This document shows, one piece after another, positions 7,540 to 61,142 of a stretch of 64,000 bases of DNA. Where the stretch lies: NCBI GenBank assembly GCA_963754985.1, contig CAVWIJ010000001.1, forward strand, positions 17,217 to 81,216. Reading direction: 5' to 3'. Each line of letters begins with the position of its first letter. The stretch's first letter is position 1. Origin of the DNA: an uncultured Holophagae bacterium. GTDB lineage: Bacteria > Acidobacteriota > Thermoanaerobaculia > Thermoanaerobaculales > Sulfomarinibacteraceae. Position numbers and translations under genes: made by a program. A model generated the notes under the pieces. It did no database searches. It was not told the DNA's origin and saw only the letters and a program-made list of their open reading frames with translations.

Positions 7540-9093
7540 GTGAACGCCTGTTCAACAGCCGGTGTCCTGTGCGTAGCGTTCGCAGCCCTCCTCTTGCTGG
7601 TCTTCGTGCCATCTGCCGGCGCTCAGGCCAACCTCACGCCAACGCCCGGCCAGTCCGAGCCCGCGCCGACCCCCTCGCCCGTCCCAACCTCGTCCGCGGA
7701 GCCTGCGCCGTCCGACCCGACGCAAGCCCCCCAGAAAGTCGAGCCCGCACCAATTCCCTCGCCCGTCCCGACACCGGCCACCGGGTCTGAGGCGGCCGAT
7801 CAGCCCGCGCCCGAGAAACAACCGGAGGAGCGAGTGGACGCGGTCCCCGAGGCAGGGGAAGAGGCGTCGTCGGACCGAATCCAATACAAGGACCCCTTGG
7901 ACATCGACTACGAGCCCGTCAAGGACAAGTGGGATCGCTTCACGCACAGCCTGCTCGGCATCACCCGCTACTCGTTCTTCGACGACAAGCTCCGCTTCCG
8001 CCTCGGCTTCCGGTTCCAGGCCGACGGCACGCTGGCCACTCCGTCGGACCAGCTCGAGGTCGCTCTCGGCGGCATGCCGGACACCGCCAACTTCCGCCGG
8101 CTCAGGCTGTTCGGCGAGGGCATCTTGTGGAACATGTACTTTCGGACCGAGTTCGAGTTCGCGGAGGACGCCGGCTTCAAGAGCGCCTACCTCGAGGGCC
8201 GCGAGGGCGGGCTCGAAATCTGGGACGTCCTGCTCGGCAAGTTCCGCTACGGCTACTTCGACGAGCCATTCAGCCTCGAGCAGAGCGTGAGCAGCTTCGA
8301 CACCACCTTCGTCGAGGTCTCGCTGCCGACCCACGCCATCGCCCCCGGCACCAACCTCGGCGCCATGGTCTACGACGCCTCGAAGAGCCGCCGGTTCACG
8401 TGGGCCGTCGGCGCCTTCTCCTGGGGACGCGAGAACGAGGACAACGCCTCGACCTCGACGCTGTCGGTCACCGGCAGGCTCGGCTTCCGGCCGGTCCGCT
8501 ACAACGACGGCCACACGATGCTCCATCTCGGTGCGTCGTTCAGCCTGCGCAGCCCCGACGGCGACGAGGAGCGCTACCGGGCTCGCCCCGAGGCGCGCTT
8601 CGTCCCCTACTTCGCCGACACCGGCGACATCCCGGCGACCGGAAACACGCTCACCGGCCTGGAGGCTGCCTGGAAAAGCGGCAGCTGGTGGGCTCAAGGC
8701 GAGTGGATCCAGTCCAAGCTGGAGTCGGTCGAGGCGGGTGATCCCAGGTTCTATGGGATCGCGCTCCAGACCGGGTTCTTTCTGACCGGCCAGTCGCGGC
8801 CGTGGGACGACCTGTTCGGAGTCTGGGGCCGGTTGCGGCCGGAGCAGCGCTATCGTCGCGGCAACCCCTTCCGAAAATCGAACGGCGGGGCCTGGGAGGT
8901 CGCGGCGCGCTACTCGACCGTCGATCTGACCGATGGCACCGTGACGGGCGGCGTGGTCCGCGACCTCACGGCCGGGGTCAACTGGTACCCCAACCGCACC
9001 TCGAAGCTCCAGCTGAACTGGATTCGCTCGAAGGTGGAGGACGTCGGCAGCGCCAGCATCTGGGTCCTGCGCTACCAGTTCGCAATCCAGTAG
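7540..9093 (+). CDS. Phosphate-selective porin O/P family outer-membrane porin with a Pro/Thr/Ser/Glu-rich N-terminal linker
   Basis: GTG at 7540 gives the signal peptide VNACSTAGVLCVAFAALLLLVFVPSAGAQA. FRRLRLFGEG and GKFRYGYFDEPFSLE blocks are present, and the C-terminus is YQFAIQ. Confidence 0.7.
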   Translation: MNACSTAGVLCVAFAALLLLVFVPSAGAQANLTPTPGQSEPAPTPSPVPTSSAEPAPSDPTQAPQKVEPAPIPSPVPTPATGSEAADQPAPEKQPEERVDAVPEAGEEASSDRIQYKDPLDIDYEPVKDKWDRFTHSLLGITRYSFFDDKLRFRLGFRFQADGTLATPSDQLEVALGGMPDTANFRRLRLFGEGILWNMYFRTEFEFAEDAGFKSAYLEGREGGLEIWDVLLGKFRYGYFDEPFSLEQSVSSFDTTFVEVSLPTHAIAPGTNLGAMVYDASKSRRFTWAVGAFSWGRENEDNASTSTLSVTGRLGFRPVRYNDGHTMLHLGASFSLRSPDGDEERYRARPEARFVPYFADTGDIPATGNTLTGLEAAWKSGSWWAQGEWIQSKLESVEAGDPRFYGIALQTGFFLTGQSRPWDDLFGVWGRLRPEQRYRRGNPFRKSNGGAWEVAARYSTVDLTDGTVTGGVVRDLTAGVNWYPNRTSKLQLNWIRSKVEDVGSASIWVLRYQFAIQ

Positions 9094-9098
9094 GTGAC

Positions 9099-9780
9099 AT
9101 GAACCGCACGCTTCGCATCCTGCAGTGGAGCCTGATCGGCGTCGGCCTGGTGCTGATCGGTAGTTTTCGTCGCCTCGCTGCTGCACCGCGAGCTCGGCTC
9201 GCGCAGCGCGATGCGCGACTTCGAAACGGCGCGTGAGGCTGCCCGGGCCGCGCCGTCTCCTTCACCAACGGTCGCGCCCGTCCCGACCCGCGTGCTGCCG
9301 AGCGAGCTCCCGACCGACACCACGCTGTGGGCCCAAGGCCGGATCGCGAAGTACAGCGAAAGCCTGAGCCACCAGTTCGCGGCGCCGCTCGCCATCCTCC
9401 GCATTCCGAAGATCGGTCTCGAGGTGCCAGTGCTCGACGGCACCGACGACCTCACGCTCAATCGCGCGGTGGGCCGCATCGAGGGCACGGCCACCGTCGA
9501 GACCATGGGCAACCTCGGCATCGCCGGCCACCGCGACGGCTACTTCCGCGGCCTCAAGGATGTCGTCGTCGGCGACACCATCGAGCTCGAGACCCTGACC
9601 GGAGAGCTGACCTTCGCCATCGAGAAGATCTCGATCGTGAAGCCCACGGACGTTGACGTGCTCGCCCCGACCGAACGGCCGACGATCACCCTGGTTGGCT
9701 GCTACCCCTTCTACTACGTCGGCAAGGCCCCCCAGCGCTACATCGTCCGCGCCACTCTCGTCGATCCCGGCGCGACGTAG
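9099..9780 (+). CDS. Sortase family transpeptidase, one frameshift near 9160
   Basis: The N-terminal TM segment MNRTLRILQWSLIGVGLVLIG is in the frame of ORF 8802..9236. The catalytic part is in ORF 9211..9780 with GIAGHRD and TLVGCYPF (a TLxTC-type Cys motif). The shift is at ggtagtttt. Confidence 0.75.
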
Positions 9781-9960
9781 CGCCTGGCCCGCTTCCGCCC
9801 TTGTCACGGCGTAGTCCGCCTCGCCACGGCGTAGTCCGAAGGACGCAGCCGGGAGGACGAAGCCGGATCCGCGCCCGAGGAGCCTGCTCTGAGCGAGCGG
9901 CGCAGCCGCGCCGCGAGTCGAAGAGTCCCCGTTCCCGTTCCCGTTCCCGTTCCCGAATGT
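9781..9960. repeat. Composite element: TGTCACGGCGTAG units, GAGCGAGCGGCG..GCCGCGAGTCGAAG hairpin core, (CCCGTT)4
   Basis: Direct reading. It starts right after the sortase stop and has the same architecture as 3700-3860 and 19665-19757. Confidence 0.75.
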
Positions 9961-10054
9961 CACCATCATCCTTGAGGTGTCCCCGTAATTCTCCCAGGGC
10001 GTCGCGCTCGACATTCGATTCCCGCCCCTCCGTCGCCCAGTTATAGTTGTCGCC

Positions 10055-12262
10055 ATGAAACACCTCCTGGCACTCGTCACAGCGGTCCTCCTCGTGATTC
10101 TCTTCGGCGCTCTGACGGTGGCGGCAGAGCAGCCCCCCGACGGCCCTGAGGCGCGCCCCAAGCTCGTCCTCGTCCTCTCCGGCGGCGGCGCCCGCGGCGT
10201 CGCCCACGTCGGCGTCCTCAAGGTCCTCGAGGAGCTGCACGTGGCGCCCGACATGGTCATTGGCACCAGCATGGGCTCGATCGTCGGCGGCCTCTACGCC
10301 GCAGGCTGGACGCCGGAGCAGATCGAGAGCCTCGTCCAACGGATCGACTGGCAGGGCGTGTTCACCGACGCGCGTGACGCGCAACCGCGAGAGCTTCCGC
10401 CGCAAGCAGGACGACCGGCCGGTGCTCATCCAGGGCCGGCTCGCCTTCGACGGCTTCAAGCCGGTGCTCCCCACCGGCGTCATCAGGGGTCAGAAGCTCG
10501 AGCTCATCCTGCGCATCATCGAGTCGATCTCGCCGGCAGTGAGCGACTTCGACCACCTCCCGATCCCCTATCGGGCGGTGGCGGCCGACATCGCCACCGG
10601 CGAGGCGGTGGTCCTCGACTCGGGCAGCCTGGCCACCGCCATGCGCGCCAGCATGTCGATCCCCGGCGCCTTTCCGCCGGTCCGGCTGGACGGGCGCGCC
10701 CTGGTCGACGGAGGCATCGCCGCCAACCTGCCGGTCGGCATCGCCAAGGAGCTGGGCGCCGTGACGGTGATCGCCGTCGACATCTCCAGCCCGCTGGTCG
10801 GGGCGGAAGAGCAGTTCAGCTCGTTCGCGGCCGTCGTCGGCCACCTCAACAGCCTGCTCACCGCCGGCAACGTCAGCCGGGACCGCGCGCTGATCGGCCC
10901 CAACGACGTGCTGATCACGCCCGAGCTCGGCGACATCAGCTTCGTCAGCTTCGACCGCGTCATCGATGCCGCCCAGATCGGCGAGGATGCCGCTCGGGCG
11001 CAGGCCGACCAACTCCGCCGTTACGCCGCCTCTGACGAGCGGTGGGCCGCGTTCGCCGGCCGGACCACGGCTCGCCCCGACGACCAGCTCCGAGTCGACA
11101 GCATCCGCATCGTCAACTCCAGCCGCGTCAACGACCGGATCGTCGGCCGCGCGATCGGCATCCAAACGCCGGTGACCCTCGAGCCGGAGGAGCTCGCCCT
11201 CGGCCTGCTCGACCTCTACAACTCGAGGTACTTCGGGACGATCGACTACCACCTCGAGGACCGTGATGGCGGCCGCGAGCTGGTGGTCACGACGCCGCCG
11301 CCCGCCGCACGGGCGGGGATCCCTGCAGTTCGGCGTCGGCTTCATCGATGACTTCGAGGGCGGCTCCGGCTACCAGCTTTCGGTCCGCCACCAGCTGCTG
11401 CCCGCCAACCGGCGCGGCGGCGAGTGGGTCAATGTCCTCCAGTTCGGCACCGAGAGCCTGGCCGCGACCGAGTTCTACCAGCCGCTCGACAGCGGCCATG
11501 CGCTGGTTTGTCGCACCCTCGCTCGGAATCCGGCGATCGAATCTCGACCTCTACTTGGAAGGCGAGCCGGTGGCGGAGTACCGGATCGACAACGCCCAGA
11601 TCAGGCTCGCCGCCGGCAGGGTGCTCGGCAACTGGGGCGAGCTGCGCGCCACGGCGTTCGTCGCCGACGTCCAGGCCGAGCCGCGCATCGGCGCTCCGGT
11701 GTTCCCGTCCGCCGACGAGCAACGGGGCGGCTTCGATCTCGGCTTCCGGGTCGACACCGTCGACGAGATCGCCTTCCCCCGCCACGGCTCGGTGGTCGAC
11801 GTGCGGTACACCACCTCCTCCTCGTCGCTGGAGTCGGAGGTCGAGTTCGACAAGGTCTGGGCCTCCGCCAGCCACTCGTGGAGCTTCGGCGAGCTCACAC
11901 TGACCCCCCACCTCGAGTACGGGGAGAACTTCGAGGACACCCTCGACCTCCTCGACCTCTACCCACTCGGCGGGCTCTTCCGCCTGTCCGGCCTCGGCCA
12001 GAACGAGCTGCTCGGCGAGCGCGCCGCGCTGGCCACGCTGCAGGCCTACTGGCGGCTGTTCGGCCTGGATCTCGCCGGCCTCAAGGTGCGCCTCTACACC
12101 GGGCTCTCGCTCGAGGCCGGCAACGTCTACTTCGACGATCCGATCACCGCCGACAGCCTCCTCTATGGGGGGTCGGTCTGGGTCGGAGCGATGACCCCCT
12201 TCGGTCCCGCCCGACTCGCCTACGGCCTCACCGAGGGCGGCCGCGACCGCTTCTACATCTAG
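10055..12262 (+). CDS. Patatin-like phospholipase fused to an Omp85/BamA-type barrel (PlpD-like, type Vd), three frameshifts
   Basis: Has a signal peptide, then GGGARG, GTSMGS (GxSxG) and [11 protein letters not shown] (DGG), followed by POTRA/barrel-like sequence ending [11 protein letters not shown]. The pieces are ORFs 10055.., 10260.., 11263.. and 11348.., with frame changes near 10375, 11300 and 11500. Confidence 0.8.
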
Positions 12263-12467: not shown

Positions 12468-13028
12468 CTACTTGCCCTTGCCGGTGTGGATCTTCTGCCA
12501 CTTCTTGCCGAGCTTCTCGAGAATCTTGTCGATCTGCGCGGCCCGCTTCTCGGGATCCTCCTTGACCGTCACCGTGCCGCTCCCCCGCCACACCAGCTTC
12601 TTCTCGGCAACGTCATAGGCATCGATGATGAGCGTGCCCTCGACGAAGGTCGAGGCAGTGGTGGTCGCGCTCGCCATCCCGCCGCCATAGCCTCTCCACC
12701 CGCCCCAGTAGCCGCCGTAGCCGCCATAGCCCACGCTGGTCGTGTTGTAGACCGTGTTCTCCTTGGAGGCGAGGTGGTAGGTGACCGCGATGTCCGGGTT
12801 CGCCGAGACTTCCCGCAGGCCACCCGTCGTGAGCTTGGCCTTGATGGCGTCGACGATGCGCGTGTGCATCAGCTCGTTGGGGGAGATGCCGTCTTCGCCA
12901 TCGACGTACTGGAAGGTCTTGACCTTGCTGAAGTCGTACTCGTGCGCGTAGTCGATGTTGACGTCCTGCGCCGCCGCCGGCAGGGCGACCGCCAGCGCCA
13001 GCATCGTGATTCCAAGTGCTCTCTTCAT
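12468..13028 (-). CDS. DUF4136 family lipoprotein
   Basis: Has a signal peptide, DYAHEYDFSKVKTFQY and FVEGTLIIDAYDVAEKKLVWRGSG (the DUF4136 hallmark), plus a Gly/Tyr/Trp insert GYGGYGGYWGGWRGYGGG. Confidence 0.8.
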   Translation of the reverse strand: MKRALGITMLALAVALPAAAQDVNIDYAHEYDFSKVKTFQYVDGEDGISPNELMHTRIVDAIKAKLTTGGLREVSANPDIAVTYHLASKENTVYNTTSVGYGGYGGYWGGWRGYGGGMASATTTASTFVEGTLIIDAYDVAEKKLVWRGSGTVTVKEDPEKRAAQIDKILEKLGKKWQKIHTGKGK

Positions 13029-13223
13029 GGATCCCTCCGACAGGTTGTTTCGATGTCCTCAACTCATCTCAAGACACAGAACCTGTGCGGAGCCCCGCAC
13101 ATTCCTCAGGCGATGGCGTCGAGGTCGGTCGACGCGGCGTGACGCGACGCGCCGACGCCAACGTGAAACCAGCCATCAGCCCACCTGCGAGGCGGCCCCG
13201 ATCTTCGGCCTCGTCGCGCCGGC

Positions 13224-19070: not shown

Positions 19071-19652
19071 TCACTTGCCCGCCGCCTTGGCCTCCTTGGC
19101 CTTCGTCTCGTCAAACTGCTTGACCATCTTCTCGAGGGCCTTGTTGATCAGCTTTTCGCCTTTCTTCGGGTCCTCCGGGATCGCTGCGACGGCTGACCCG
19201 CGCCACACGATCTGCTTGGTCTTGGCGTCCCAGATGTCAACGACCAGGGTGCCCTTCTCGTAGGTGGAGACGGTCGTGCTGGCTCCGCCCCCGCTGGCGC
19301 TGGGCCCACCCCAGTAGGGGTCCCATCCCCAGCCCGCGCCGTAGCCGTATCCGTAGCCGGTGACGCTGAACTGGAGCTCCTCCTGCGAGCTGGTGTGGTA
19401 GGTGACGTAGAGATCCGGGTTGTCGGCGACCCCGATGAGGCCCCTCGCGGTCAACAAGTGCTCCAGGCCGTTCTTGATGCGCGTGTGCATGAGCGGGGAA
19501 AACTCCTGAAGCGCCGGCCCCGTGTCCTGCCAGGCGAAGGTCTTGTAGTCCCTGCCGATCGCATCACGGTCGTAGTCGACGTAGACCTTCTGCGCCGCCG
19601 CCGGCATCGCAAACAGCACCGCCATCAGCGCGAGTCCAAGTGTCTTCCTCAT
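19071..19652 (-). CDS. DUF4136 family lipoprotein
   Basis: MRKTLGLALMAVLFAMPAAAQ follows a GGGAGGAAGG RBS. Contains YKTFAWQD and YEKGTLVVDIWDAKTKQIVWRGSA, with the insert GYGYGYGAGWGWDPYWGG. Confidence 0.8.
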   Translation of the reverse strand: MRKTLGLALMAVLFAMPAAAQKVYVDYDRDAIGRDYKTFAWQDTGPALQEFSPLMHTRIKNGLEHLLTARGLIGVADNPDLYVTYHTSSQEELQFSVTGYGYGYGAGWGWDPYWGGPSASGGGASTTVSTYEKGTLVVDIWDAKTKQIVWRGSAVAAIPEDPKKGEKLINKALEKMVKQFDETKAKEAKAAGK

Positions 19653-19664
19653 GCCTTCCTCCCA

Positions 19665-19757
19665 CTTTCGCTTCCGCACCCAAGGAGCCTGCCCTGAGCG
19701 AGCGGCGAAGCAGCGCCGCGAGTCGAAGGGTTCCCGTTCCCGTTCCCGTCCCCGTTC
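19665..19757. repeat. Composite hairpin/hexamer element filling the gap between two DUF4136 genes
   Basis: Sequence reads CGCTTCCGCACCCAAGGAGCCTGCCCTGAGCGAGCGGCGAAGCAGCGCCGCGAGTCGAAGGGTTCCCGTTCCCGTTCCCGTCCCCGTT. Confidence 0.8.
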
Positions 19758-20316
19758 ACTTGCCCTTGTCCCGCATCGAACGGTACGTCTCGACGATCTT
19801 CGTGATCGCCTTGTCGAGCTGCTTGAGCGCCTTCTCGGGGTTCTCCGACATCACGTCGGTCGCCGTGCCGCGCCAGACCGCGAGCTTGGTGTGGGCGTCC
19901 CAGATGTCGATGATCAGGCACCCTTTCCGGTAGGTGTTGACCTGGGTGCTCCCGGTCACCATGCTCGTGCCCCAGTAAGGGTCCCACCCCCAACCCGCGC
20001 CGTAGCTGTAGCCGTAGGCCTGTGAAATGACCTGGACCGATTCCTTCGGGTTGGTGTGGTAGATGACGTAGAGGTCGGGGTTCTTGGTGTCCTCGATGAA
20101 ACCCCCTCCGGTGAGCTCGTACTCGATCGACTCCTTGATGAACGAGTGCACCATCGGGTGATTCGCCTCGAGCACGCTCGGCGGCATCTCCCCCCACGCG
20201 AAGGTCTTGTACTTGCTGCGGTCGACCGTCCGATCGTAGTCCACGTACACCTTCTGCGCCGCCGCCGGCACGGCAACGGCCACCAGAATCGACAGCACGA
20301 TCAGCTTTTTCATCAT
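19756..20316 (-). CDS. DUF4136 family lipoprotein
   Basis: Start MMKKLIVLSILVAVAVPAAAQ. Contains YKTFAWGE and YRKGCLIIDIWDAHTKLAVWRGTA, with the insert AYGYSYGAGWGWDPYWG. Confidence 0.8.
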   Translation of the reverse strand: MMKKLIVLSILVAVAVPAAAQKVYVDYDRTVDRSKYKTFAWGEMPPSVLEANHPMVHSFIKESIEYELTGGGFIEDTKNPDLYVIYHTNPKESVQVISQAYGYSYGAGWGWDPYWGTSMVTGSTQVNTYRKGCLIIDIWDAHTKLAVWRGTATDVMSENPEKALKQLDKAITKIVETYRSMRDKGK

Positions 20317-20431
20317 GGTTCCCCCAGGTCGTTCGCCCGTATCGCGGTCTGACCGCGGAGGATACCACGGAAGCGCACGGCCCCCTGGCACGCTGTATGA
20401 TCGTCTCGGCGAGGGTGCGGAGGACCGCGGC

Positions 20432-20614
20432 ATGCGCTTCCTGATCGCCACCCTGATGGCCTGCCTGATCGCCGCGCCGGCCGCAGCAGGCTGGCTCGAC
20501 GACTACGTCGACTCCGAGGACGGCACGCTCGGCCTGCTCTCCGGCGTCGACGTCGCCCGGGGGCCCGAGGAGTGGGCGTTCTACATCCAGGTGGGACAGG
20601 CCTGGGGACACTGA
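20432..20614 (+). CDS. Small putative secreted protein
   Basis: 60 aa with signal-like MRFLIATLMACLIAAPAAAG. No family recognised, and in high-GC DNA this could be spurious. Confidence 0.3.
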   Translation: MRFLIATLMACLIAAPAAAGWLDDYVDSEDGTLGLLSGVDVARGPEEWAFYIQVGQAWGH

Positions 20615-25340: not shown

Positions 25341-26601
25341 TCAGGATGGACGCTTGACGAACAGGAGCAGCGTGCCGCCGCCGAGGAACAGCACCACGAT
25401 CGAAAGGATGGCGAGGCGCGGGTTGCCGGTGGCCACGCCCACCCAGCCCATCAGCACCGGCCCGATCACCGCCGCGAATTTGCCCAGCATGTTGTAGAAG
25501 CCAAAGAACTCGGCTGACTTCTCGGGTGGGATGAGGCGTGCGTAGAACGAGCGCGACAGCGCCTGGACGCCCCCTTGGACGAGCCCGATGGTGATGGCGA
25601 GGGCGTAGAACTCCCAGACCGAGTCCATGAAGAACGCCCACACCGTGACCAGGACGTAGACGCCAATGCCGATCAGGATGCCGGTCTTCGCGCCCAGCCG
25701 GGTGCCGATGCGGCCGAAAGCGATCGCCGCCGGGAAACCGACGAACTGGGTGATCAGCAGCGCCAGGATCAGCCCATTGCGGCCGAAGCCCAGCGCCATG
25801 CCGTAGTCCACCGCCATCCGGATGATGGTGTCGACGCCGTCGATGTACAGCCAGTAGGCGAGCAGGAAGAGGAACACCATCCGCAGGCTGCGGATCTCGC
25901 GGAAGGTCGCAGCCAGCTGGGAGATCCCGCCGCGAATCGCACTCGCCAGGCTGGTCCCGCGTCGCAGCGCGCCTTTCCCTGACGAACACGAACAGCGGAA
26001 TCGCGAACACCGCCCACCACACCGCCGTGAGCAGGAAGGACAGGCGGACTGCCTGATCCGCGCCGGCCAGCCCGAAGCGCGCCGGCCACAACGTCATCGC
26101 GACGCAGCCCGCGAAGAGCACGCCGCCCCCGAGGTAGCCGAGCGCGTAGCCGAGCGCCGACACGACGTCGTAGCGATCCTCGCTGGTGACCGAGACGATG
26201 AGGGCGTCGTAGAAGACATTCGCACCGAGGAAACCGACCGTGGACAGCACGAACAGCACCAGCGCGATCTCCCACCGCCCCATCGCCACCCAGGTCAGCG
26301 CCCCGGTCATGGCCACGCCGAGCGCGAGAAAGGCGAGCAGGAAGCGCTTGCGGGCGCCGCCGCGGTCGGCGATCGCGCCGAGCACCGGGCCGAAGGCGAC
26401 GATCACCAGGCTCGCAATGGAGTTGGCGAGGCCGAGCCGGAAGGTGATGGTGGAGCTCGCCTCCCCGGCGCTCCAGACGTCGCGAAAGAAGATCGGGAAG
26501 AAGCCTGCCAACATGACCGTCGCGAAGGCGGAGTTGGCCCAGTCGTAGAGCGCCCAGGAAACCACCGCGCGCCGATCGCCGGCGGTATCGCGCCCCCTCA
26601 T
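25341..26601 (-). CDS. MFS transporter (UMF1/Atg22-like), one frameshift near 25960
   Basis: The N-half is in ORF 25189..26601 (VSWALYDWANSAFATVMLAGFFPIFF). The C-half is in ORF 25341..25880 (LLAYWLYIDGVDTIIRMAVDYG...FFGFYNMLGKFAAVIGP). Confidence 0.8.
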
Positions 26602-42204: not shown

Positions 42205-42291
42205 GCGAAAGTGGCGGAAGTGGTAGACGCGCAAGATTCAGGATCTTGTGCCCGCAAGGGCGTGGGGGTTCGAGTCCCCCCTTTCGCACCA
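42205..42291 (+). tRNA. tRNA-Leu, anticodon CAG, type II with long variable arm, CCA encoded
   Basis: Folded by hand. Acceptor GCGAAAG/CTTTCGC; anticodon stem CAAGA/TCTTG with loop TTCAGGA; variable arm GCCC-GCAA-GGGC; T arm GGGGG-TTCGAGT-CCCCC; then ACCA. Confidence 0.9.
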
Positions 42292-43375
42292 ACTCTCTGA
42301 TCAACCATCATCCGTCGACGCCAGCGTGGGGGTGGCTCGCGCGCTGCGCGCGCGGCGACCCGGCGGACTCTGCGGGCGGTTGTACGCCGCTCACCTCCCT
42401 CTCCGGTCGAGCTTCGCCCTCCCTGCGACCCCCCCGGCTACAACCGCATACCGCAGCCTCTCGCCGTGTGCGAGTCCCCCCTTTCGCACCAACTCTCTGA
42501 TCAACCATCGTCCTTCGACACCCGCGTGGGGGTGGCTCGCGCGCTGCGCGCGCGGCGACCCGGCGGACTCTGCGGGCGGTTGTACGGCGCTCACCTCCCT
42601 CTCCGGTCGGGCCTCGCCCTCCCTGCGACCCCCCCGGCTACAACCGCATACCGCAGCCTCTCGCCGTGTGCGAGTCCCCCCTTTCGCACCAACTCTCTGA
42701 TCAACCATCATCCGTCGACGCCAGCGTGGGGGTGGCTCGCTCGCTGCGCGCGCGGCGACCCGGCGGACTCTGCGGGCGGTTGTACGCCGCTCACCTCCCT
42801 CTCCGGTCGAGCTTCGCCCTCCCTGCGACCCCCCCGGCTACAACCGCATACCGCAGCCTCTCGCCGTGTGCGAGTCCCCCCTTTCGCACCAACTCTATGA
42901 TCAACCATCGTCCTTCGACACCCGCGTGGGGGTGGCTCGCGCGCTGCGCGCGCGGCGACCCGGCGGACTCTGCGGGCTGTTGTACGCCGCTCACCTCCCT
43001 CTCCGGTCGGGCCTCGCCCTCCCTGCGACCCCCCCGGCTACAACCCCATACCGCAGCCTCTCGCCGTGTGCGAGTCCCCCCTTTCGCACCAACTCTATGA
43101 TCAACCATCGTCCTTCGACACCCGCGTGGGGGTGGCTCGCGCGCTGCGCGCGCGGCGACCCGGCGGACTCTGCGGGCTGTTGTACGCCGCTCACCTCCCT
43201 CTCCGGTCGGGCCTCGCCCTCCCTGCGACCCCCCCGGCTACAACCGCATTCCGCAGCCTCTCGCCGTGTGCGAGTCCCCCCTTTCGCACCAACTCTCTGA
43301 TCAACCATCGTCCTTCGACACCCGCGTGGGGGTGGCTCGCGCGCTGCGCGCGCGGCGACCCGGCGGCGCTGGCGG
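42271..43375 (+). repeat. Tandem array of 200-bp units, each ending with the 21-nt 3' end of tRNA-Leu (5 full units plus a partial one)
   Basis: CGAGTCCCCCCTTTCGCACCA occurs at 42271 (the genuine tRNA), 42471, 42671, 42871, 43071 and 43271. Two unit variants are ordered A-B-A-B-B-partial. Confidence 0.95.
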
Positions 43376-43411
43376 GCGCGGCCTGTTGAGTTCTGGGCTG
43401 ACCCTCGTAAG

Positions 43412-44035
43412 ATGGCAGACCGACAAACACAGAGTCGGGATGGTGCCACCGTGAAAAATGATCACTCCCTTTTGGTCTGGGTCCTCGATCAAACCCTGGG
43501 GTTGCTCCTGAGCTCCGCGAGAACTGCCGAGCAGGAGGAGGCAGTCAAGGAACTCCGTACGCTCGCGTTGCTGCCAAAGCCGGACAAGTCAAAGCTCGAG
43601 TCGCTCGTGCATCGACTGGAGACGATGGTCTCGACCAAACCAGAGCCCATGCGAACAGAGCGCACCCTGAAACGTGCAGGAGTCATAGAGTCACGCCCTG
43701 TTCGCATAACCCTTGACCGTGAGTTGAACAGGCTGATTGAGTCCATCGGGAAGAAGTCAGCCGCGAGAAGAACTCCTGGCAAGAAGGCCGCGGTGAAGAA
43801 GACCGCCGTCAAGGCCCGCGCGAAAAAGACCACCACCAAGGCTGGCGGGAGAAAGGCCGCCGTACGGCCTGGCAGGATGAAAACCGCCGCAGAGGTTGGC
43901 GCGAAAAAGACCGCCGTCAAGGGCGGCGGGAAGAAGACCGCAGCCCTGGCTCCAAGGAAGAAGACCGCCAAGAGAGACGGCGGCAAGAAGACCGCCGCCG
44001 TCAAGAGTGTCCACAGAAAGACGACGCGAGCATGA
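43412..44035 (+). CDS. Histone H1-like / Lys-Ala-rich nucleoid-associated protein
   Basis: An N-terminal globular part is followed by a KKTA(V/A)K-type repeat tail (GKKAAVKKTAVKARAKKTTTKAGGRKAAV...GGKKTAAVKS). Local GC is visibly lower than the flanks. Confidence 0.6.
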   Translation: MADRQTQSRDGATVKNDHSLLVWVLDQTLGLLLSSARTAEQEEAVKELRTLALLPKPDKSKLESLVHRLETMVSTKPEPMRTERTLKRAGVIESRPVRITLDRELNRLIESIGKKSAARRTPGKKAAVKKTAVKARAKKTTTKAGGRKAAVRPGRMKTAAEVGAKKTAVKGGGKKTAALAPRKKTAKRDGGKKTAAVKSVHRKTTRA

Positions 44036-47475: not shown

Positions 47476-47692
47476 CAGGCGTGGAAGCACATGCGCGACT
47501 CCACGGTTGCTGTGACGGCTCGACGCGCGTTCGCCGGTTCGCCGTCGGATGCTATGATTGAGACAGCCTGTGGGGACACGGCGTCGCTGGTGAGGCAGGT
47601 CGGTCGAAGCCGATCTGCGGCGTTGGCGTCGGATGGTCGATGACCGTTGCAGGCGGCACCGTCGCCTGCCCCCGCAGGACGAGAGAGGAGCC

Positions 47693-48604
47693 ATGGCGCT
47701 GGATCGCCGCGAGCTGCTGGGATGGCTCGGCTGCGCCGCCACGAGCTGCGTGGTGGCGCGTGACGCAGAGGGCGCTCACTCGACCGGCCCCGACCAGGAC
47801 CCCTACGCGGTTCTCGTCGACACCACCACCTGCATCGGGTGCCGCAAGTGCGAGTGGGCCTGCAACCAGGCGAACGGTCTTCCCGCCGAGCCCCTCGAGA
47901 GCTTCGAGAACAAGGCCATCTTCGCGACCATGCGCCGGCCGGATGCGGGCCACTACACCGTGGTCAACCGCTTCGGCGGCTCGGGCGGTGGCGACCCGCT
48001 CAGGTACGTGAAGGTCCAGTGCATGCACTGCATCGAACCAACGTGCTACTCGGCCTGCCTGGTGACCGCCTTCACCAGGCATGACGACGGCGCCGTCACC
48101 TACGACGCGTCGCGCTGCATGGGCTGCCGGTACTGCATGGTTTCCTGCCCGTTCCAGGTCCCCGCCTACGAGTACTCGAACCCGCTGACGCCGCAGGTGC
48201 GCAAGTGCAGCTTCTGCCACAACAGGGTGTCCGAGGAAGGCAAGGCCCCGGCCTGCGTCGAGGTCTGTCCTCCCCAGTGCCTCTCCTTCGGGCGCCGCGG
48301 CGAGCTGCTCGAGCTCGCTCACCGCCGCATCGCCGAGGGCCGGGGGCGCTACGTCGACCAGGTCTATGGCGAGCACGAGGTGGGCGGCACCTGCTGGCTC
48401 TACCTGTCGAGCGTGCCCTTCGCCGAGATCGGGTTTCCGCGGCTCGGCAGCGAGCCGCCGGCGCGCATCACCGAGGGCATCCAGCACGGCGTTTTCAAGC
48501 TCTTCTTGCCGCCGATCGCTCTGTTCACTCTGCTCGGCGCCGCCATGCACTTGCTCCGCCCGGAGGATGGTTCGGCCGATGCCGACAGCGGAGGCGCGCC
48601 GTGA
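47693..48604 (+). CDS. Tat-exported 4Fe-4S ferredoxin-type subunit (HybA/HmcB/DsrO-like) with a C-terminal TM helix
   Basis: The twin-arginine leader is MALDRRELLGWLG. Cys clusters are CIGCRKCEWAC, CMHCIEPTCYSAC, CMGCRYCMVSC and CSFC...CVEVCP. The TM helix is VFKLFLPPIALFTLLGAAM. Confidence 0.85.
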   Translation: MALDRRELLGWLGCAATSCVVARDAEGAHSTGPDQDPYAVLVDTTTCIGCRKCEWACNQANGLPAEPLESFENKAIFATMRRPDAGHYTVVNRFGGSGGGDPLRYVKVQCMHCIEPTCYSACLVTAFTRHDDGAVTYDASRCMGCRYCMVSCPFQVPAYEYSNPLTPQVRKCSFCHNRVSEEGKAPACVEVCPPQCLSFGRRGELLELAHRRIAEGRGRYVDQVYGEHEVGGTCWLYLSSVPFAEIGFPRLGSEPPARITEGIQHGVFKLFLPPIALFTLLGAAMHLLRPEDGSADADSGGAP

Positions 48605-49857
48605 CCGCGCACCTCGCCGCGCCGCTGCGACGGCCCTTCTTCACGCCCGGCGTGCTCGTGCTGCTCGGCCTGATGGCGGTCGGTCTCGCGTTCGCGGCGG
48701 CCCGCTTCGTCCTCGGCCTCGACGCGGTGACCCACCTCAGCGACCAGTACCCGTGGGGCATCTGGATCGCCGTCGACGTCGCCACCGGCGTGGCCCTGGC
48801 GGCCGGCGGCTTCACCACCGCGGCGCTGGTCCACATCTTCCACCGGCGTCGCTACGAGGCGGTGGTCCGCCCGGCCCTGCTCACCGCCGTTCTGGGCTAC
48901 ACCTTCGTCGTCCTGGGAATCCTCGTCGACCTGGGCCGCTACTACAACATCTGGCACCCCGCCATGCCCTGGATGTGGTCCGGGCACTCGGCCCTGTTCG
49001 AGGTGGCCATGTGCGTCATGGTCTACCTCACCGTGCTCTACATCGAGTTCCTCCCGATCGTGGTCGAGCGCTTCGCGGGCCGGGTCGCGCTGCCGGGCGT
49101 GCTGCGGGCCCTCGACGCTCCCATCGAGGCGACCCTCCGCCTCCTCGACCGGACCTTTGGCCGCGCGATGTCGCTCTTCATCATCCTCGGCGTCGTCCTC
49201 TCCACCCTCCACCAGTCCTCGCTGGGCGCGCTCATGGTGCTCGCGCGCGACAAGATGAGCCCCCTGTGGTGGACCCCGATCCTGCCGCTGCTCTTCCTGC
49301 TGTCCGCGGTCGCCGTGGGCTACTCCATGGTCATCTTCGAGTCGCTGCTCTCCTCCCGGGCGTTCAAGCGCGCACCCGAGATGGACATCCTGCCGGGCCT
49401 GGCCAGGTTCCTCCCGCTGCTGCTCTTCATCTACCTCTCGTTCAAGGTCATCGACCTCGTCATCCGGGGCGCGGCCCGCCACCTGCTCGACGGCGGCGCG
49501 GCCCCGCTGCTTTTCCTGCTCGAGATCGGCGCCGGCGTGGCGGCGCCGCTCCTCATGCTGCTGTCGGAGAAGGTGCGGCGCAGCCCGGCGCTGCTGTTGA
49601 CGGCCTCGGCCCTGGTGATTTTCGGGGTGGTCCTCAATCGAATCAACGTGTTCCTGGTCGCCTACACGCCGTACTACGCCTCCCGGCCGTACTTCCCCAG
49701 CCTCGGCGAGATCGCCATCACGGTCGGGTTGGTCTCCGCCCTCGTCCTCGCCTACCGGCTCCTCGTCACCGTTCTCCCCATCCTCCCGGCAGAGGCCCAC
49801 GGCCCGTCCGGGGCGCGCGATGCGCTGCCGTCGAGCCGCGGCGCAGGAGGCGCCTGA
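48601..49857 (+). CDS. NrfD/PsrC/HybB-family integral membrane quinone-interacting subunit
   Basis: The GTG start overlaps the upstream stop (GTGA). It is a polytopic protein of about 418 aa with WGIWIAVDVATGVALAAGGF and SALFEVAMCVMVYLTVLYIEF. Confidence 0.85.
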   Translation: MTAHLAAPLRRPFFTPGVLVLLGLMAVGLAFAAARFVLGLDAVTHLSDQYPWGIWIAVDVATGVALAAGGFTTAALVHIFHRRRYEAVVRPALLTAVLGYTFVVLGILVDLGRYYNIWHPAMPWMWSGHSALFEVAMCVMVYLTVLYIEFLPIVVERFAGRVALPGVLRALDAPIEATLRLLDRTFGRAMSLFIILGVVLSTLHQSSLGALMVLARDKMSPLWWTPILPLLFLLSAVAVGYSMVIFESLLSSRAFKRAPEMDILPGLARFLPLLLFIYLSFKVIDLVIRGAARHLLDGGAAPLLFLLEIGAGVAAPLLMLLSEKVRRSPALLLTASALVIFGVVLNRINVFLVAYTPYYASRPYFPSLGEIAITVGLVSALVLAYRLLVTVLPILPAEAHGPSGARDALPSSRGAGGA

Positions 49858-51875: not shown

Positions 51876-53305
51876 ATGAGAACGAAGCTCGCACTCACCG
51901 TCGTCGCGTCGCTGCTGCTCGCCGCCTCGTGGGCGGGCGCCGAGGAGGTCGCCGGCCTGCCGCTGCACGTCCAGCGGCTCGACCCGGGCACGATCCGGGT
52001 CTGGGTCGGCGACTCCATCTCGTCGACCGCGATGGTCGCCTTCGCGACCGAGAAGGGCATCGTGGTCGTCGACACCTTCGGCATCCCGAAGGTCGACGCC
52101 GAGCTGCGCACGGTCATCGCCCGCGAGCTCGGCCGCACCGACTTCAGGGTCCTCATCAACACCCACGAGCACGGCGACCACACCGGCGGCAACTCGGTCT
52201 ACGCCGACTGCACCATCGTCGGCCACGAGCTCGTCGCCGCCGGGCTCGCGGAGATCGCCGGCAACCGCGAGCGGATGCTCGAGCTGGCCCCGCGCGGCTC
52301 GCCGAGCTGGAGACCGAGCTCGCGAAGGCCGAGCCCGGCTCCCCCGAGGCGGCGCGGCTCCAGGAGGACCTGACCCTCCGGCGGCTCGACTTCGAGAAGG
52401 CGAAGGCGAACCTCGCCCCGGTCCCGCCGACCGAGACCTTCTCCGACCGCATGACGCTCGACATGGGCGACACCACCTTCGAGCTGTACTGGATCGGCGG
52501 CATGCACTCGGCGAGCGACATCGCCGTCTTCGTCCCGGAGCGCGGCCTGCTGCTGACCGGCGACACCATGGCCGACGTCTGGCTCACCGACACGCCGGGC
52601 TGCCTCGCCTGCTTCAGCGCGCGGTCCGGCGTCCGCCACGACTTCCCGCTGCTGCTCGCCAACTGGGACCGGCTGCTCGCCCAGAGGGACCAGATCAAGC
52701 GTCTGCTCCCCGGCCACTGGAACGGCGAGCTGTCGATCGCCGGCGCCGAGGCCAGGGTCGAGTACGTCCGGACGCTCTGGGACGGGCGTCACCGCGGCCG
52801 TCGCGGAGGGCAAGAGCTTCGACGAGCGTCCAGACGGAGTACCAGCTCGCCAGCCCGCTTCCCCGACCTCGCGAGCAGCCCCGGCTTCGCCCAGGCCAGG
52901 CACTACGGGACCATCGCCGAGATCTGGAGCGAGGTGACCGGCCAGCAGGCGGCCGCCACCGTGCTCTTCGCCCTGATCGACCAGGGCGCCGACGAGGCGG
53001 CCGTCCGCGCGGTCGTCGCCGACCGCTCGAGCACGTCGCCGAAGTACTTCTTCGTCGAGAACGAGATCAACGGCTACGGCTACTTCTTCCTCCAGGACGA
53101 CAAGGTCGAGCAGGCGATCAGGATGTTCAGGATCAACGTCGAGCTCTTCCCCGACTCGTGGAACGTCTACGACAGCCTGGGCGAGGCGCTGCTGCGCGCC
53201 GGCTCGACCGACGAGGCGGTGGCGATGTACGAGCGCTCGCTGGTCCTCAACCCGGACAACGCCAACGGCAGGGACGCCCTGGCCAAGATCCGCGCCGCCG
53301 CCTGA
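51876..53305 (+). CDS. Secreted MBL-fold metallo-hydrolase with a C-terminal TPR-like region, at least 3 frame changes
   Basis: Has a signal peptide MRTKLALTVVASLLLAASWAGA, HEHGDH (HxHxDH), and a tail DSLGEALLRAGSTDEAVAMYERSLVLNPDNA. Shifts lie near 52290 and within 52795-52860. Confidence 0.75.
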
Positions 53306-53307
53306 CC

Positions 53308-53510
53308 GTTGTAGCGCAGGCTTCCTGCCTGCCTTGTGGGGTAGGCATCCTGCCTGCCTTGTAGGCGTGGGCATCCTGCCTGCGTCCGGAGGCATCCTGC
53401 CTGCCTTGTAGGCGCAGGCATCCTGCCTGCCTTGTAGGGTAGGCATCCTGCCTGCCTTGTGGCGTGGGCATCTTGCCCGCGTCCCAGCATCCAGCCTGCT
53501 TGTAGCGCAG
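53308..53510. repeat. Tandem ~27-28-bp units built on the hairpin GCAGGCA-TCC-TGCCTGC (about 7 copies)
   Basis: GGCATCCTGCCTGCCTTGTAGG is repeated head to tail. The same family occurs at 54500-54712, 60171-60210 and 60855-60900. Confidence 0.85.
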
Positions 53511-53718
53511 CGCGCGAGAGAGTCCCTGCTCCGTGCCTCCAACCGGGAATTCCACGGCGGCTGACGCGGGTTGCAGAAATCTGAGACGACCTCGCAAAGT
53601 CGACCGCTTGCGCCAACTGGTGGCCATCTGACGGGGCGTTCTCACCCTGCCACCAGGGGCCGCCCAGCGGGGCCGTCGGACGCCGCGCATTCAAGGCGCA
53701 GCGCGGCTGGGAGGCGAC

Positions 53719-54514
53719 ATGACGGAGGCACATGCGATCGGCGGACTGGACCGGAACGTTCTCCGGCAGGAGATCCGCAACGAGTACCGGGAGGTCGCAC
53801 GGCATCCCGACCGCGGCTTCCACTTCCACACCGGCAGAACGCTCGCCCGCCTCGTCGAGTACCACGACGAGTGGCTCGAGGGCATCCCCGAGCCGGTGAT
53901 CTCGCGCTTTGCAGGAACCGGCAACCCTTTCAGCATCCGCTCCCTCGTAGCCCGGCGAACGGGTCGTGGACCTGGGGTGCGGGGCGGGCATCGACAGCTT
54001 CATCGCCGCGCGACACGTGGGCCCCGAGGGCGCGGTCGTGGGCATCGACATGACCCCGGAGATGCTGGACACGGCGCGGTCTGCAAGGGCCGAAGCCGGG
54101 ATGGAGCACCTGGACTTCAGGCAGGGCTACCTGGAGCAGATCCCGGTCGACGACGGCTGGGCCGACGTGGTCATCTCCAACGGCGTCATCAACCTCTGCC
54201 CCGACAAGGGCGTCACCTTCCGGGAGATCCATCGCGTGCTCAAGCCCGGCGGCCGCCTCCAGATCGCCGACATCCTGGTGAGCCGTCCCGTCTCCGACTC
54301 GGCCAAGCGGCGCATCGACCTGTGGACCGGGTGAATCGCCGGCGCTCTGCTGGAAGCAGAGCTCGAGGCGATTGTTCGTGGCGCGGGGTTCGAGGACTTC
54401 GAGATCACCTGGAGGAAGCCCGTGTTCGAGGGTGCACCGCAGAGCTCGAGCGCGGCCGCCTTCGGAACCGTGGGCATCAACTACCGCGCATCCAAGCCGC
54501 GCGTTGTAGGGTAG
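53719..54514 (+). CDS. ArsM-like class I SAM-dependent methyltransferase, one frameshift near 53950 and an in-frame TGA at 54332
   Basis: Contains FAGTGNPF, motif I ERVVDLGCGAGID, VVISNGVINL and LKPGGRLQIADI, then RIDLWTG-TGA-IAGALLEAELEAIVRGAGFEDFEI in the same frame. The TGA replaces the Cys of the ArsM WxGC(I/L)AGAL motif. Confidence 0.75.
54335..54372 (+). promoter_or_regulatory. Stem-loop immediately 3' of the in-frame TGA (bacterial SECIS-like candidate)
   Basis: Structure is ATCGCC-ggc-GCTCTGC-TGGAA-GCAGAGC-tcga-GGCGAT: a 7-bp upper stem and 6-bp lower stem, with the apical loop 16 nt after the TGA. Confidence 0.4.
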
Positions 54515-54712
54515 GCATCCTGCCTGCCTGATCGCCTCGCGTTGTAGCGCAGGCATCTTGCCTGCCTTGTAGCGCAGGCATCCTGCCTGACGTCTCGCGT
54601 AGGGTAGGCATCTGCCTGCCTGATCGCCTCGCGTTGTAGGGTAGGCATCCTGCCTGCCTGATCGCCTCGCGTTGTAGCGCAGGCATCCTGCCTGCCTCTG
54701 GCTGCGAACGGC
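54500..54712. repeat. Tandem ~41-bp units of the GGCATCCTGCCTGCC family (about 5 copies)
   Basis: CGCGTTGTAG(G/C)G(T/C)AGGCATCCTGCCTGCCTGATCGCCT is repeated. The first unit supplies the stop codon of the methyltransferase. Confidence 0.85.
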
Positions 54713-60003: not shown

Positions 60004-60231
60004 GCGACCGCCTCCGTCGGACCCAGCTCGAGCAAATCGTCTCTAGCCTCGCCCTCGGTCTCGTCCGCAATGACAGGCTTGAGGGAGTTGCGGTCAGCCG
60101 GTACCCGCAACCCACCGCGCTCTGGCAGCTCACGCTTGAACGGCGGAATGGCGTGCCCGGCACCCGTCTGGGCATCCTGCCTGCCTTGTGGGGTAGGCAT
60201 CCTGCCTGCCTCGCCCGCAGGCTGCGCCTGT

Positions 60232-60748: not shown

Positions 60749-61142
60749 TTCCAGCCCCGGCAGGAATCGGCTCAGCACATAGCCCCGACGATCGCCATCG
60801 AGCGCCCCGGCCCCTCGGGCCAAGGCCCTCTTCGTGTCTTCCCGAGCGATTGTGGCGTCGGCATCCTGCCTGCCTTGTGGCGTCGGCATCTTGCCGGCGA
60901 TGCAGCACCGCTTGTCACTGCGCCTCGTCACGGCGGCTTGTCACGGCGGCTTGTCACGGCATAGCCAGAGGCGAAGCCGGAAGCCGGAAGTCGAGGGATC
61001 CCCGGATCGCACGAGCGCCATCCCGCCTACGGGCTGCCAACCCCACCACAGCCCTCCTTGTGGATGATCGGGAGGCGTAGAAAGGGCTCGTTCGCGCCTT
61101 CGTGCCCGTGCCCGCAAATGGTCTGGGAGGGGGGGTATGCCC

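Follow-up and report, generated by a model that had tools for sequence, protein, structure and literature searches.

A probable selenocysteine codon followed by a SECIS-like hairpin in an ArsM-like methyltransferase gene of an uncultured Holophagae bacterium

As early as the work of Fomenko et al. (2007), and again in the GOS survey (PMC2398784), arsenite methyltransferase was placed among the selenoprotein families. A 2026 review tabulates the arsenite methyltransferase selenoprotein with the motif UxxG, together with three NCBIfam families of ArsM fusions (PMC13188914). The gene described here lies in the window, by which we mean the whole stretch of 64,000 nucleotides that was analysed, from an uncultured Holophagae bacterium. 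It joins the known ArsM-type selenoproteins and constitutes no new selenoprotein family. The first-pass annotation, made from the letters alone, had implied novelty for its candidate selenocysteine (Sec) site, and this did not hold, because ArsM-type selenoproteins with Sec at UxxG are already catalogued. The NCBIfam ArsM selenoprotein families reportedly go back to Haft and Tolstoy in 2025. In canonical ArsM, As(III) is bound by Cys174 and Cys224, and Cys44 and Cys72 serve in reduction.

According to our overall reading, which we hold with considerable confidence, the window very probably encodes an ArsM-like SAM-dependent methyltransferase that carries Sec at residue 205 by means of a hairpin in the mRNA, and the frameshift in the window copy is most likely an assembly indel. 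By sequence and ORF translation, one gene on the + strand spans 53719-54514, from the ATG at 53719 to the TAG at 54512-54514, and is preceded by the Shine-Dalgarno-like sequence GGGAGG (53709-53714, + strand) 4 nt 5' of the start codon. When one extra base is removed, 264 amino acids are encoded and the TGA is codon 205. The N-terminal segment, codons 1-78 in the frame of the ATG (53719-53952, + strand), was delimited by translation and alignment to ArsM; it holds GFHFHTGR and FAGTGNPF, with Thr67 in place of ArsM Cys72, and agrees with how the 204-aa homologs P0001 and P0002 begin. A C run with the extra base follows (53951-53953, + strand), and codons 79-204 lie in a second frame (53954-54331, + strand), identified by its translation, by Pfam (Methyltransf_31/11/25) and by matches to ArsM structures (E 3e-29). 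This segment contains SAM motif I (VVDLGCGAG) and ISNGVINL, the Gly of which stands in place of ArsM Cys174, and ends in ...IDLWTG. The UGA predicted to be read as Sec (54332-54334, + strand) opens the motif U-I-A-G, and the 59 codons after it (54335-54511, + strand) form the C-terminal part of the methyltransferase. The protein ends in ...YRASKPRVVG and has a single Sec and a single TGA. An ORF at 53966-54334 ending in ...RIDLWTG-TGA had been described before, with a frame that stays open for 59 codons past the TGA (IAGALLEAELEAIVRGAGFEDFEITWRKPVFEGAPQSSSAAAFGTVGINYRASKPRVVG); both statements agree with the sequence and translation, the frame running to the TAG at 54512-54514. The one-base frameshift upstream of this ORF had been overlooked, and the GTGNP motif, although present and aligned to the Cys72 site as claimed, lies in a different reading frame from the ORF to which it had been assigned.

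A 25-nt unit that is palindromic at its core (GCAGGCATCCTGCCTGC, 7-bp stem) is present in the window in 10 copies, against 0 expected by chance, and the true stop TAG (54512-54514, + strand) is part of the first downstream copy. Arrays of the unit flank the methyltransferase gene (53300-53477 and 54504-54697), further copies lie at 60186-60210 and 60850-60874, and the copy number differs from that in the 96%-identical contigs L081 and L082. The unit looks like a REP-type element.

The protein has a class I SAM-methyltransferase core (Pfam Methyltransf_31, E 8e-30) with flanking regions of the ArsM type, and the best solved structures are all ArsM: Chlamydomonas 5evj (E 3e-29) and CmArsM 4fr0/5eg5 (about 1e-27), over residues 42-242. 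In this alignment CmArsM Cys224 is matched by the TGA codon, Cys72 by the Thr of GTGNP and Cys174 by the Gly of SNGVINL, so that the set Cys72/Cys174/Cys224 of ArsM and AS3MT reads Thr, Gly and Sec in the window. The alignment thus bears out the earlier observation that the other two ArsM cysteines are absent. Thr or Val at the Cys72 position and Gly at the Cys174 position are found throughout the clade, in Sec and Cys forms alike, and therefore the canonical two-Cys As(III) site cannot form. Among NCBIfam models, the best four gave 230 bits (NF041537, cutoff 510), 217.2 bits (NF008823, cutoff 263), 211 bits (NF041536, cutoff 575) and 199 bits (NF047649, cutoff 460); three of them are defined explicitly as families of selenoproteins with an ArsM-like methyltransferase. 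The window protein thus stays below the cutoff of the NF008823 family model, and it stays outside the ArsM-fusion selenoproteins (NF041537, NF041536, NF047649), being below their cutoffs and having one domain and one TGA. A cysteine lies at 54190-54200 (NLCPDK), five residues downstream of the Gly at the ArsM Cys174 position; this extra Cys occurs in 20 of 130 Sec forms, the subclade of the window, and M, I, L, V or T is found there elsewhere. It could be the partner for a selenenylsulfide.

The conservation of the UGA was followed in proteins and in DNA. Among the best 120 relatives from a search of 5.8 billion proteins, inspected at the Sec site, 54 end exactly in ...LWTG (71-97% identical, nearly all called as 204 aa) and 60 are full-length with Cys in the next position (LWTG-C-IAGAL). 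Three JGI proteins of the same set (P0019, P0020, P0026) have Trp at the site and run on past it, probably because the gene caller translated TGA as Trp. This amounts to a mis-annotation of selenoproteins: with 54 of the best 120 proteins cut at the UGA, the family is systematically truncated in public catalogues. The DNA of relatives comprised 80 loci from species-representative genomes, 80 metagenome loci and several individual contigs, and the codon at the Sec site is TGA in 73 of the 80 genome loci, 78 of the 80 metagenome loci and all five closest contigs. Wherever a stop-type codon stands at the site it is TGA (158/158; 156 related loci and the window), never TAA or TAG. The clade is Sec-containing in its overwhelming majority. 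Hosts named among the genome loci belong to the Acidobacteriota, Gemmatimonadota, SAR324, Anaerolineae/Chloroflexota, Eisenbacteria, Actinomycetota (Ilumatobacteraceae, Gaiellaceae) and Brocadiales. In 99 loci sharing the tail type of the window, the 55 codons that follow the TGA show 1007, 1175 and 2700 substitutions relative to the window at codon positions 1, 2 and 3, respectively; the tail of locus L085 differs from that of the window at 0, 1 and 10 such positions and shares 96% amino-acid identity. The frame after the TGA is open, its peptide is conserved and the differences concentrate in third positions, and therefore we conclude that the tail is translated in this frame. In addition, two gene boundaries aside, no TGA of the 64-kb window other than that at 54332-54334 has coding signal (high GC3, no stops) both before and after it.

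Directly after the UGA, the window RNA from 54332 to 54376 folds with -24.8 kcal/mol (RNAfold; z-score -4.22, none of 200 shuffles as stable). A 7-bp helix, GCUCUGC (54344-54350) paired with GCAGAGC (54356-54362), starts 9 nt after the UGA, and its loop UGGAA (54351-54355) starts 16 nt after it, which confirms the position and the GG ascribed to the apical loop by the first-pass annotation. An outer stem, AUCGCC (54335-54340) with GGCGAU (54366-54371), extends the hairpin to 54335-54371 (+ strand). The family was compared in an ungapped alignment of 72 distinct 48-nt segments starting at the TGA. In these, RNAalifold found exactly one helix, in columns 13-19/25-31, corresponding to 54344-54350/54356-54362 of the window. 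In this apical helix 95.6% of cells are paired, and four of the seven pairs show compensatory double changes; when the partner was shifted by 1-3 columns as a control, pairing fell to 28-49%. Compensations that cost amino acids also occur (CUC..GGA, Ala to Gly; GCG..GCG, Glu to Ala), and in actinobacterial members with a different peptide (IAGGLPRAGW) the helix is still at the same place. The outer stem, which L081 keeps by means of G-U pairs, is paired in only 33% of cells across the family and is therefore regarded as lineage-specific. The fold drawn in the first-pass annotation is thus reproduced for the window RNA, but conservation across the family is restricted to the apical 7-bp helix, and we take 54344-54362 (+ strand), with its covariation, RNAalifold support and codon bias, as the conserved core of the presumed SECIS element. 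The loops of relatives are mostly UGGAN.

Codon usage and the comparison with Cys forms address whether the helix could be a by-product of the peptide. Among Sec forms, GCU stands at Ala codon 5 in 106 of 119 and GCA at Ala codon 9 in 108 of 121, both being required for pairing; over the 200 codons that precede the TGA in these genes, GCU and GCA make up 11-12% of Ala codons, and the unpaired Ala codon 3 is GCC in 73 of 87 Sec forms. The Sec forms (136 distinct) have on average 6.68 of the seven pairs and -11.6 kcal/mol, compared with 4.4 of 7 and -5.9 kcal/mol in the Cys forms (12 distinct DNAs). Cys forms with a nearly identical peptide (CIAGALLEPEL, CIAGALLESEL) use other synonymous codons and retain 2-4 pairs. 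The concern that Cys homologs might share the hairpin through amino-acid constraint is thus mostly dispelled. Three of the 12 Cys forms (L131 3586, L166 9141, L168 5239) keep the full helix right after TGC or TGT; these are candidates for recent Sec-to-Cys conversions with a fossil SECIS, and their helix also leaves room for another role of the hairpin. Under the bSECISearch rules, the first two positions of the loop should contain G and the loop should begin 16-37 nt past the UGA; the window loop agrees on both counts, with G in those positions and a start at 16-17 nt. No Rfam SECIS family was found, either in the whole window at the gathering threshold or in 54300-54420 at E<=10, which means little, since SECIS elements in bacteria differ from gene to gene. 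The only hit, to DUF3800-VI, is on the opposite strand and was dismissed as a chance match.

The locus therefore presents what characterizes a SelB/SECIS-dependent selenoprotein gene: an in-frame UGA aligned to Cys in homologs, that is, a Cys/Sec pair; a UGA conserved together with the coding sequence downstream of it; and a conserved stem-loop directly 3' of the UGA. These same observations, the conserved UGA, the translated tail, the covarying hairpin and the Cys/Sec pair, support the site that had been put forward as a Sec candidate, and its placement exactly at the conserved Cys is upheld by the full-length homologs (LWTG-C-IAGAL) and by the alignment to CmArsM Cys224. In the proposed mechanism, SelB, loaded with Sec-tRNA(Sec), would recognize the hairpin of the mRNA at 54344-54362, and Sec would be inserted at the UGA (54332-54334) instead of termination; it would replace the one active-site Cys that the clade has kept (Cys224 of CmArsM). 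Since Sec would sit at the sole conserved active-site Cys of the clade, it would be expected to serve as the nucleophile, in catalysis or in substrate binding. Both this chemical role of Sec and the part played by SelB are presumed. Sec might hold a chalcogen or metalloid substrate for SAM-dependent methylation, and in a methyltransferase of uncertain substrate it marks the one residue that matters.

The machinery for Sec incorporation was sought in the window and in related loci. The 64-kb window contains no tRNA-Sec (ARAGORN, which found only tRNA-Leu; Rfam), and a Pfam scan of 30 of its larger ORFs yielded no SelA, SelB or SelD and no molybdopterin or formate-dehydrogenase-type selenoprotein. 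The absence of the machinery from a piece of 64 kb is uninformative about the genome. Among 120 related loci, ARAGORN detected tRNA-Sec in L048 alone. In this Gaiellaceae MAG the tRNA-Sec gene (8785-8876; ARAGORN; Rfam RF01852, 67 bits) lies 1.6 kb 3' of the homologous TGA, and a 3' fragment of selB (9401-10007; SelB-wing_3, E 5.5e-14) lies 2.2-2.8 kb downstream of that TGA. The selenoprotein gene of L048 has MBL-fold, MFS and DsrE genes upstream, with the tRNA-Sec gene and the selB 3' end directly downstream, an arrangement that counts in favour of the Sec reading.

Several further features of the window were recorded. At 42271-43378 a 200-bp unit is repeated in tandem 5.5 times (96% matches), the array starting within the 3' end of tRNA-Leu(CAG) (42205-42291). 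Degenerate repeats of 27/54/81 nt (43784-43969) within the ORF at 43301-44035 encode a tail rich in Lys and Ala (KKTAVKA...), similar to those of histone-H1-like or AlgP-like proteins. A 4Fe-4S dicluster (Fer4_11) gene adjoins an NrfD-type membrane subunit gene at 47594-49857; upstream of this pair no recognisable molybdopterin catalytic subunit was found, and ERCC4-like and AAA-ATPase-like ORFs lie there. Three DUF4136 lipoprotein-like genes are located at 12468-13058, 19071-19850 and 19756-20502 (- strand), two of them in tandem.

The frameshift of the window copy was examined by DNA alignment and in a three-frame view. The two frames join at GTAGCCCGGC (53947-53956). Contigs L081, L082 and L084, which come from other samples and share 96% DNA identity, read GTA-ACC-GGC at the GTAGCCCGGC site, in frame, and P0002, available as protein only, has Val-Ala-Gly there (...LVAGERVV). 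Because these 96%-identical relatives are in frame without the additional C, we conclude that the window has one extra base in the C run 53951-53953. Programmed frameshifting is ruled out at this point by the close relatives, which are in frame there. Outside the indel, the methyltransferase gene differs from that of L081 almost only synonymously, and the TGA, the hairpin and the tail are all kept; the adjoining PGAP1-like gene shows a clean 3-nt indel relative to L081. At least three further genes of the window are split between frames with no stop between them in the three-frame view: a patatin-like phospholipase gene (10330-10440, break near 10375), an ATG22/MFS transporter gene on the - strand (25930-26060, near 26000) and the MBL-fold/TPR gene just upstream of the methyltransferase gene (52270-52400, near 52300). 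For the last of these, tblastn found no homolog in any related locus. The three additional split genes suggest an indel-prone assembly, several pseudogenes being less likely, and annotators of this assembly should allow for indel-type frame breaks in several genes.

Other explanations of the codon and of the frameshift have to be weighed against this evidence. That the TGA is an ordinary stop, yielding a 204-aa product with the hairpin as terminator or attenuator, would agree with the 204-aa products that gene finders called in dozens of assemblies. We nevertheless regard this as very improbable: the 59 downstream codons are open and in frame, and in 99 loci they are under purifying selection at the protein level; the homologs with Cys are continuous through the site, where TAA or TAG never occurs; a 204-aa product would be without the part of the fold aligned to ArsM residues 224-260; and no U tract follows the hairpin 3'. 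Even smaller, and close to negligible, is the chance that the TGA is a sequencing error or encodes Trp or Gly under an alternative genetic code. The Trp of P0019, P0020 and P0026 is what a code with TGA as Trp would produce, but many ordinary genes of the window terminate with TGA and the homologous residue is Cys, neither Trp nor Gly. About 156 independent assemblies carry TGA at this position, which contradicts an error; the suspicion of a private error is thereby removed, 156 related loci having both the TGA and the translated, conserved tail. As to the frameshift, we favour an assembly indel for the extra C at 53951-53953, because several other window genes are split likewise, and we consider this origin probable, with appreciable doubt remaining. 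The frameshift may instead be real, with the family being selenoproteins and the window copy a dead, recently inactivated pseudogene, which we rate as possible and clearly short of an even chance. The insertion is indeed missing from all close relatives, and no downstream start gives a functional enzyme, the only one, GTG at 53966, falling inside SAM motif I. A pseudogene is, however, at odds with the intact remainder of the gene, its near-synonymous divergence from L081 and the retention of TGA, hairpin and tail; the at least three other frame-split genes point to a systematic indel problem, and the extra base is located in a homopolymer.

The substrate is the remaining question on which readings diverge. 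A bona fide As(III) SAM methyltransferase, as the family name implies, would be in line with the solved structures, which match best to ArsM (E 3e-29), with the 217 bits obtained for NF008823 and with the name 'arsenite methyltransferase' that JGI gave to many relatives. We judge this unlikely, as the score is under the curated cutoff (217 versus 263) and the As(III)-binding Cys pair is incomplete throughout the clade, with Thr/Val and Gly at the Cys72 and Cys174 positions. The gene neighbourhoods, counted by tblastn among about 175 loci and labelled with Pfam in annotated neighbourhoods, may also speak against arsenite: the seven annotated neighbourhoods contain no ars genes, and genes of sulfur trafficking recur instead. 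The recurrent neighbours are an MBL-fold protein (43-44 of about 175 loci), an MFS transporter (42-44), an ArsR-type HTH-rhodanese regulator (43), DsrE-like proteins (23-25), OsmC (24) and TusA (15), and some Cys forms found in the protein search bear a C-terminal TusA domain. This set resembles the sulfide/persulfide detoxification clusters of the BigR/Blh type. The neighbours in the window differ, with the unrelated MBL-TPR gene upstream and a PGAP1/DUF676-like hydrolase gene, shared with L081, downstream. Because the clade is without the other As-binding cysteines and has sulfur-trafficking neighbours, arsenite is perhaps not the substrate, and the two features together suggest an alternative function. 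Only tentatively, and as a possibility that we regard as doubtful, we propose that this large, multi-phylum and mostly Sec-containing clade, which has lost the As-binding cysteines and keeps one Sec or Cys, acts on S, Se or Te species, not on arsenite. The proposal draws on the recurrent neighbours, taken as genes for handling persulfide and sulfide, with the MBL-fold protein as dioxygenase-like and the MFS protein as an exporter. Sulfane sulfur, sulfide or selenide, for example, could be held on Sec and then methylated; if true, volatile methylated chalcogens would arise by way of a selenoenzyme. The H2S/methanethiol methyltransferases MddH, MddM1 and MddM2 were considered as members of this family and set apart by their descriptions, being of the UbiE/UbiG type with about 200 aa; neither paper on them mentions ArsM or Sec, and the analogy is functional only.

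Compared with described systems, the window protein shares the SAM motifs and the C-terminal domain of CmArsM and Chlamydomonas ArsM (4fr0, 5evj) and of mammalian AS3MT, but of the cysteines of canonical ArsM only the Cys224 position survives, as Sec. With the known Sec-containing arsenite methyltransferase (PRK11873/NF008823 type; GOS; Zhang and Gladyshev, 2008) it has the fold family, the Sec motif and the occurrence of Cys homologs at the site in common. It differs from the NF008823 type (reference sequence WP_011987699.1) in its score below the cutoff and perhaps also in belonging to a clade without Cys72 and Cys174. The marine SAR324 members of the clade (L002, L006) may be those seen in GOS. 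The models NF041537 (ArsM/AhpD), NF041536 (ArsM/DUF2284) and NF047649 (methyltransferase/UXPK-star) align to the query over residues 8-250, a stretch that takes in the Sec site, and have UxxG in common with it, whereas the window protein has no AhpD domain, DUF2284 domain or UXPK-stop tail. As in the fdhF-type SECIS of E. coli, the UGA is followed at once by the hairpin, which is part of the coding sequence; the hairpin sequence is unrelated, however, and shows no obvious bulged U. In the minimal fdhF element the helix begins 11 nt after the UGA, compared with 9 nt in the window.
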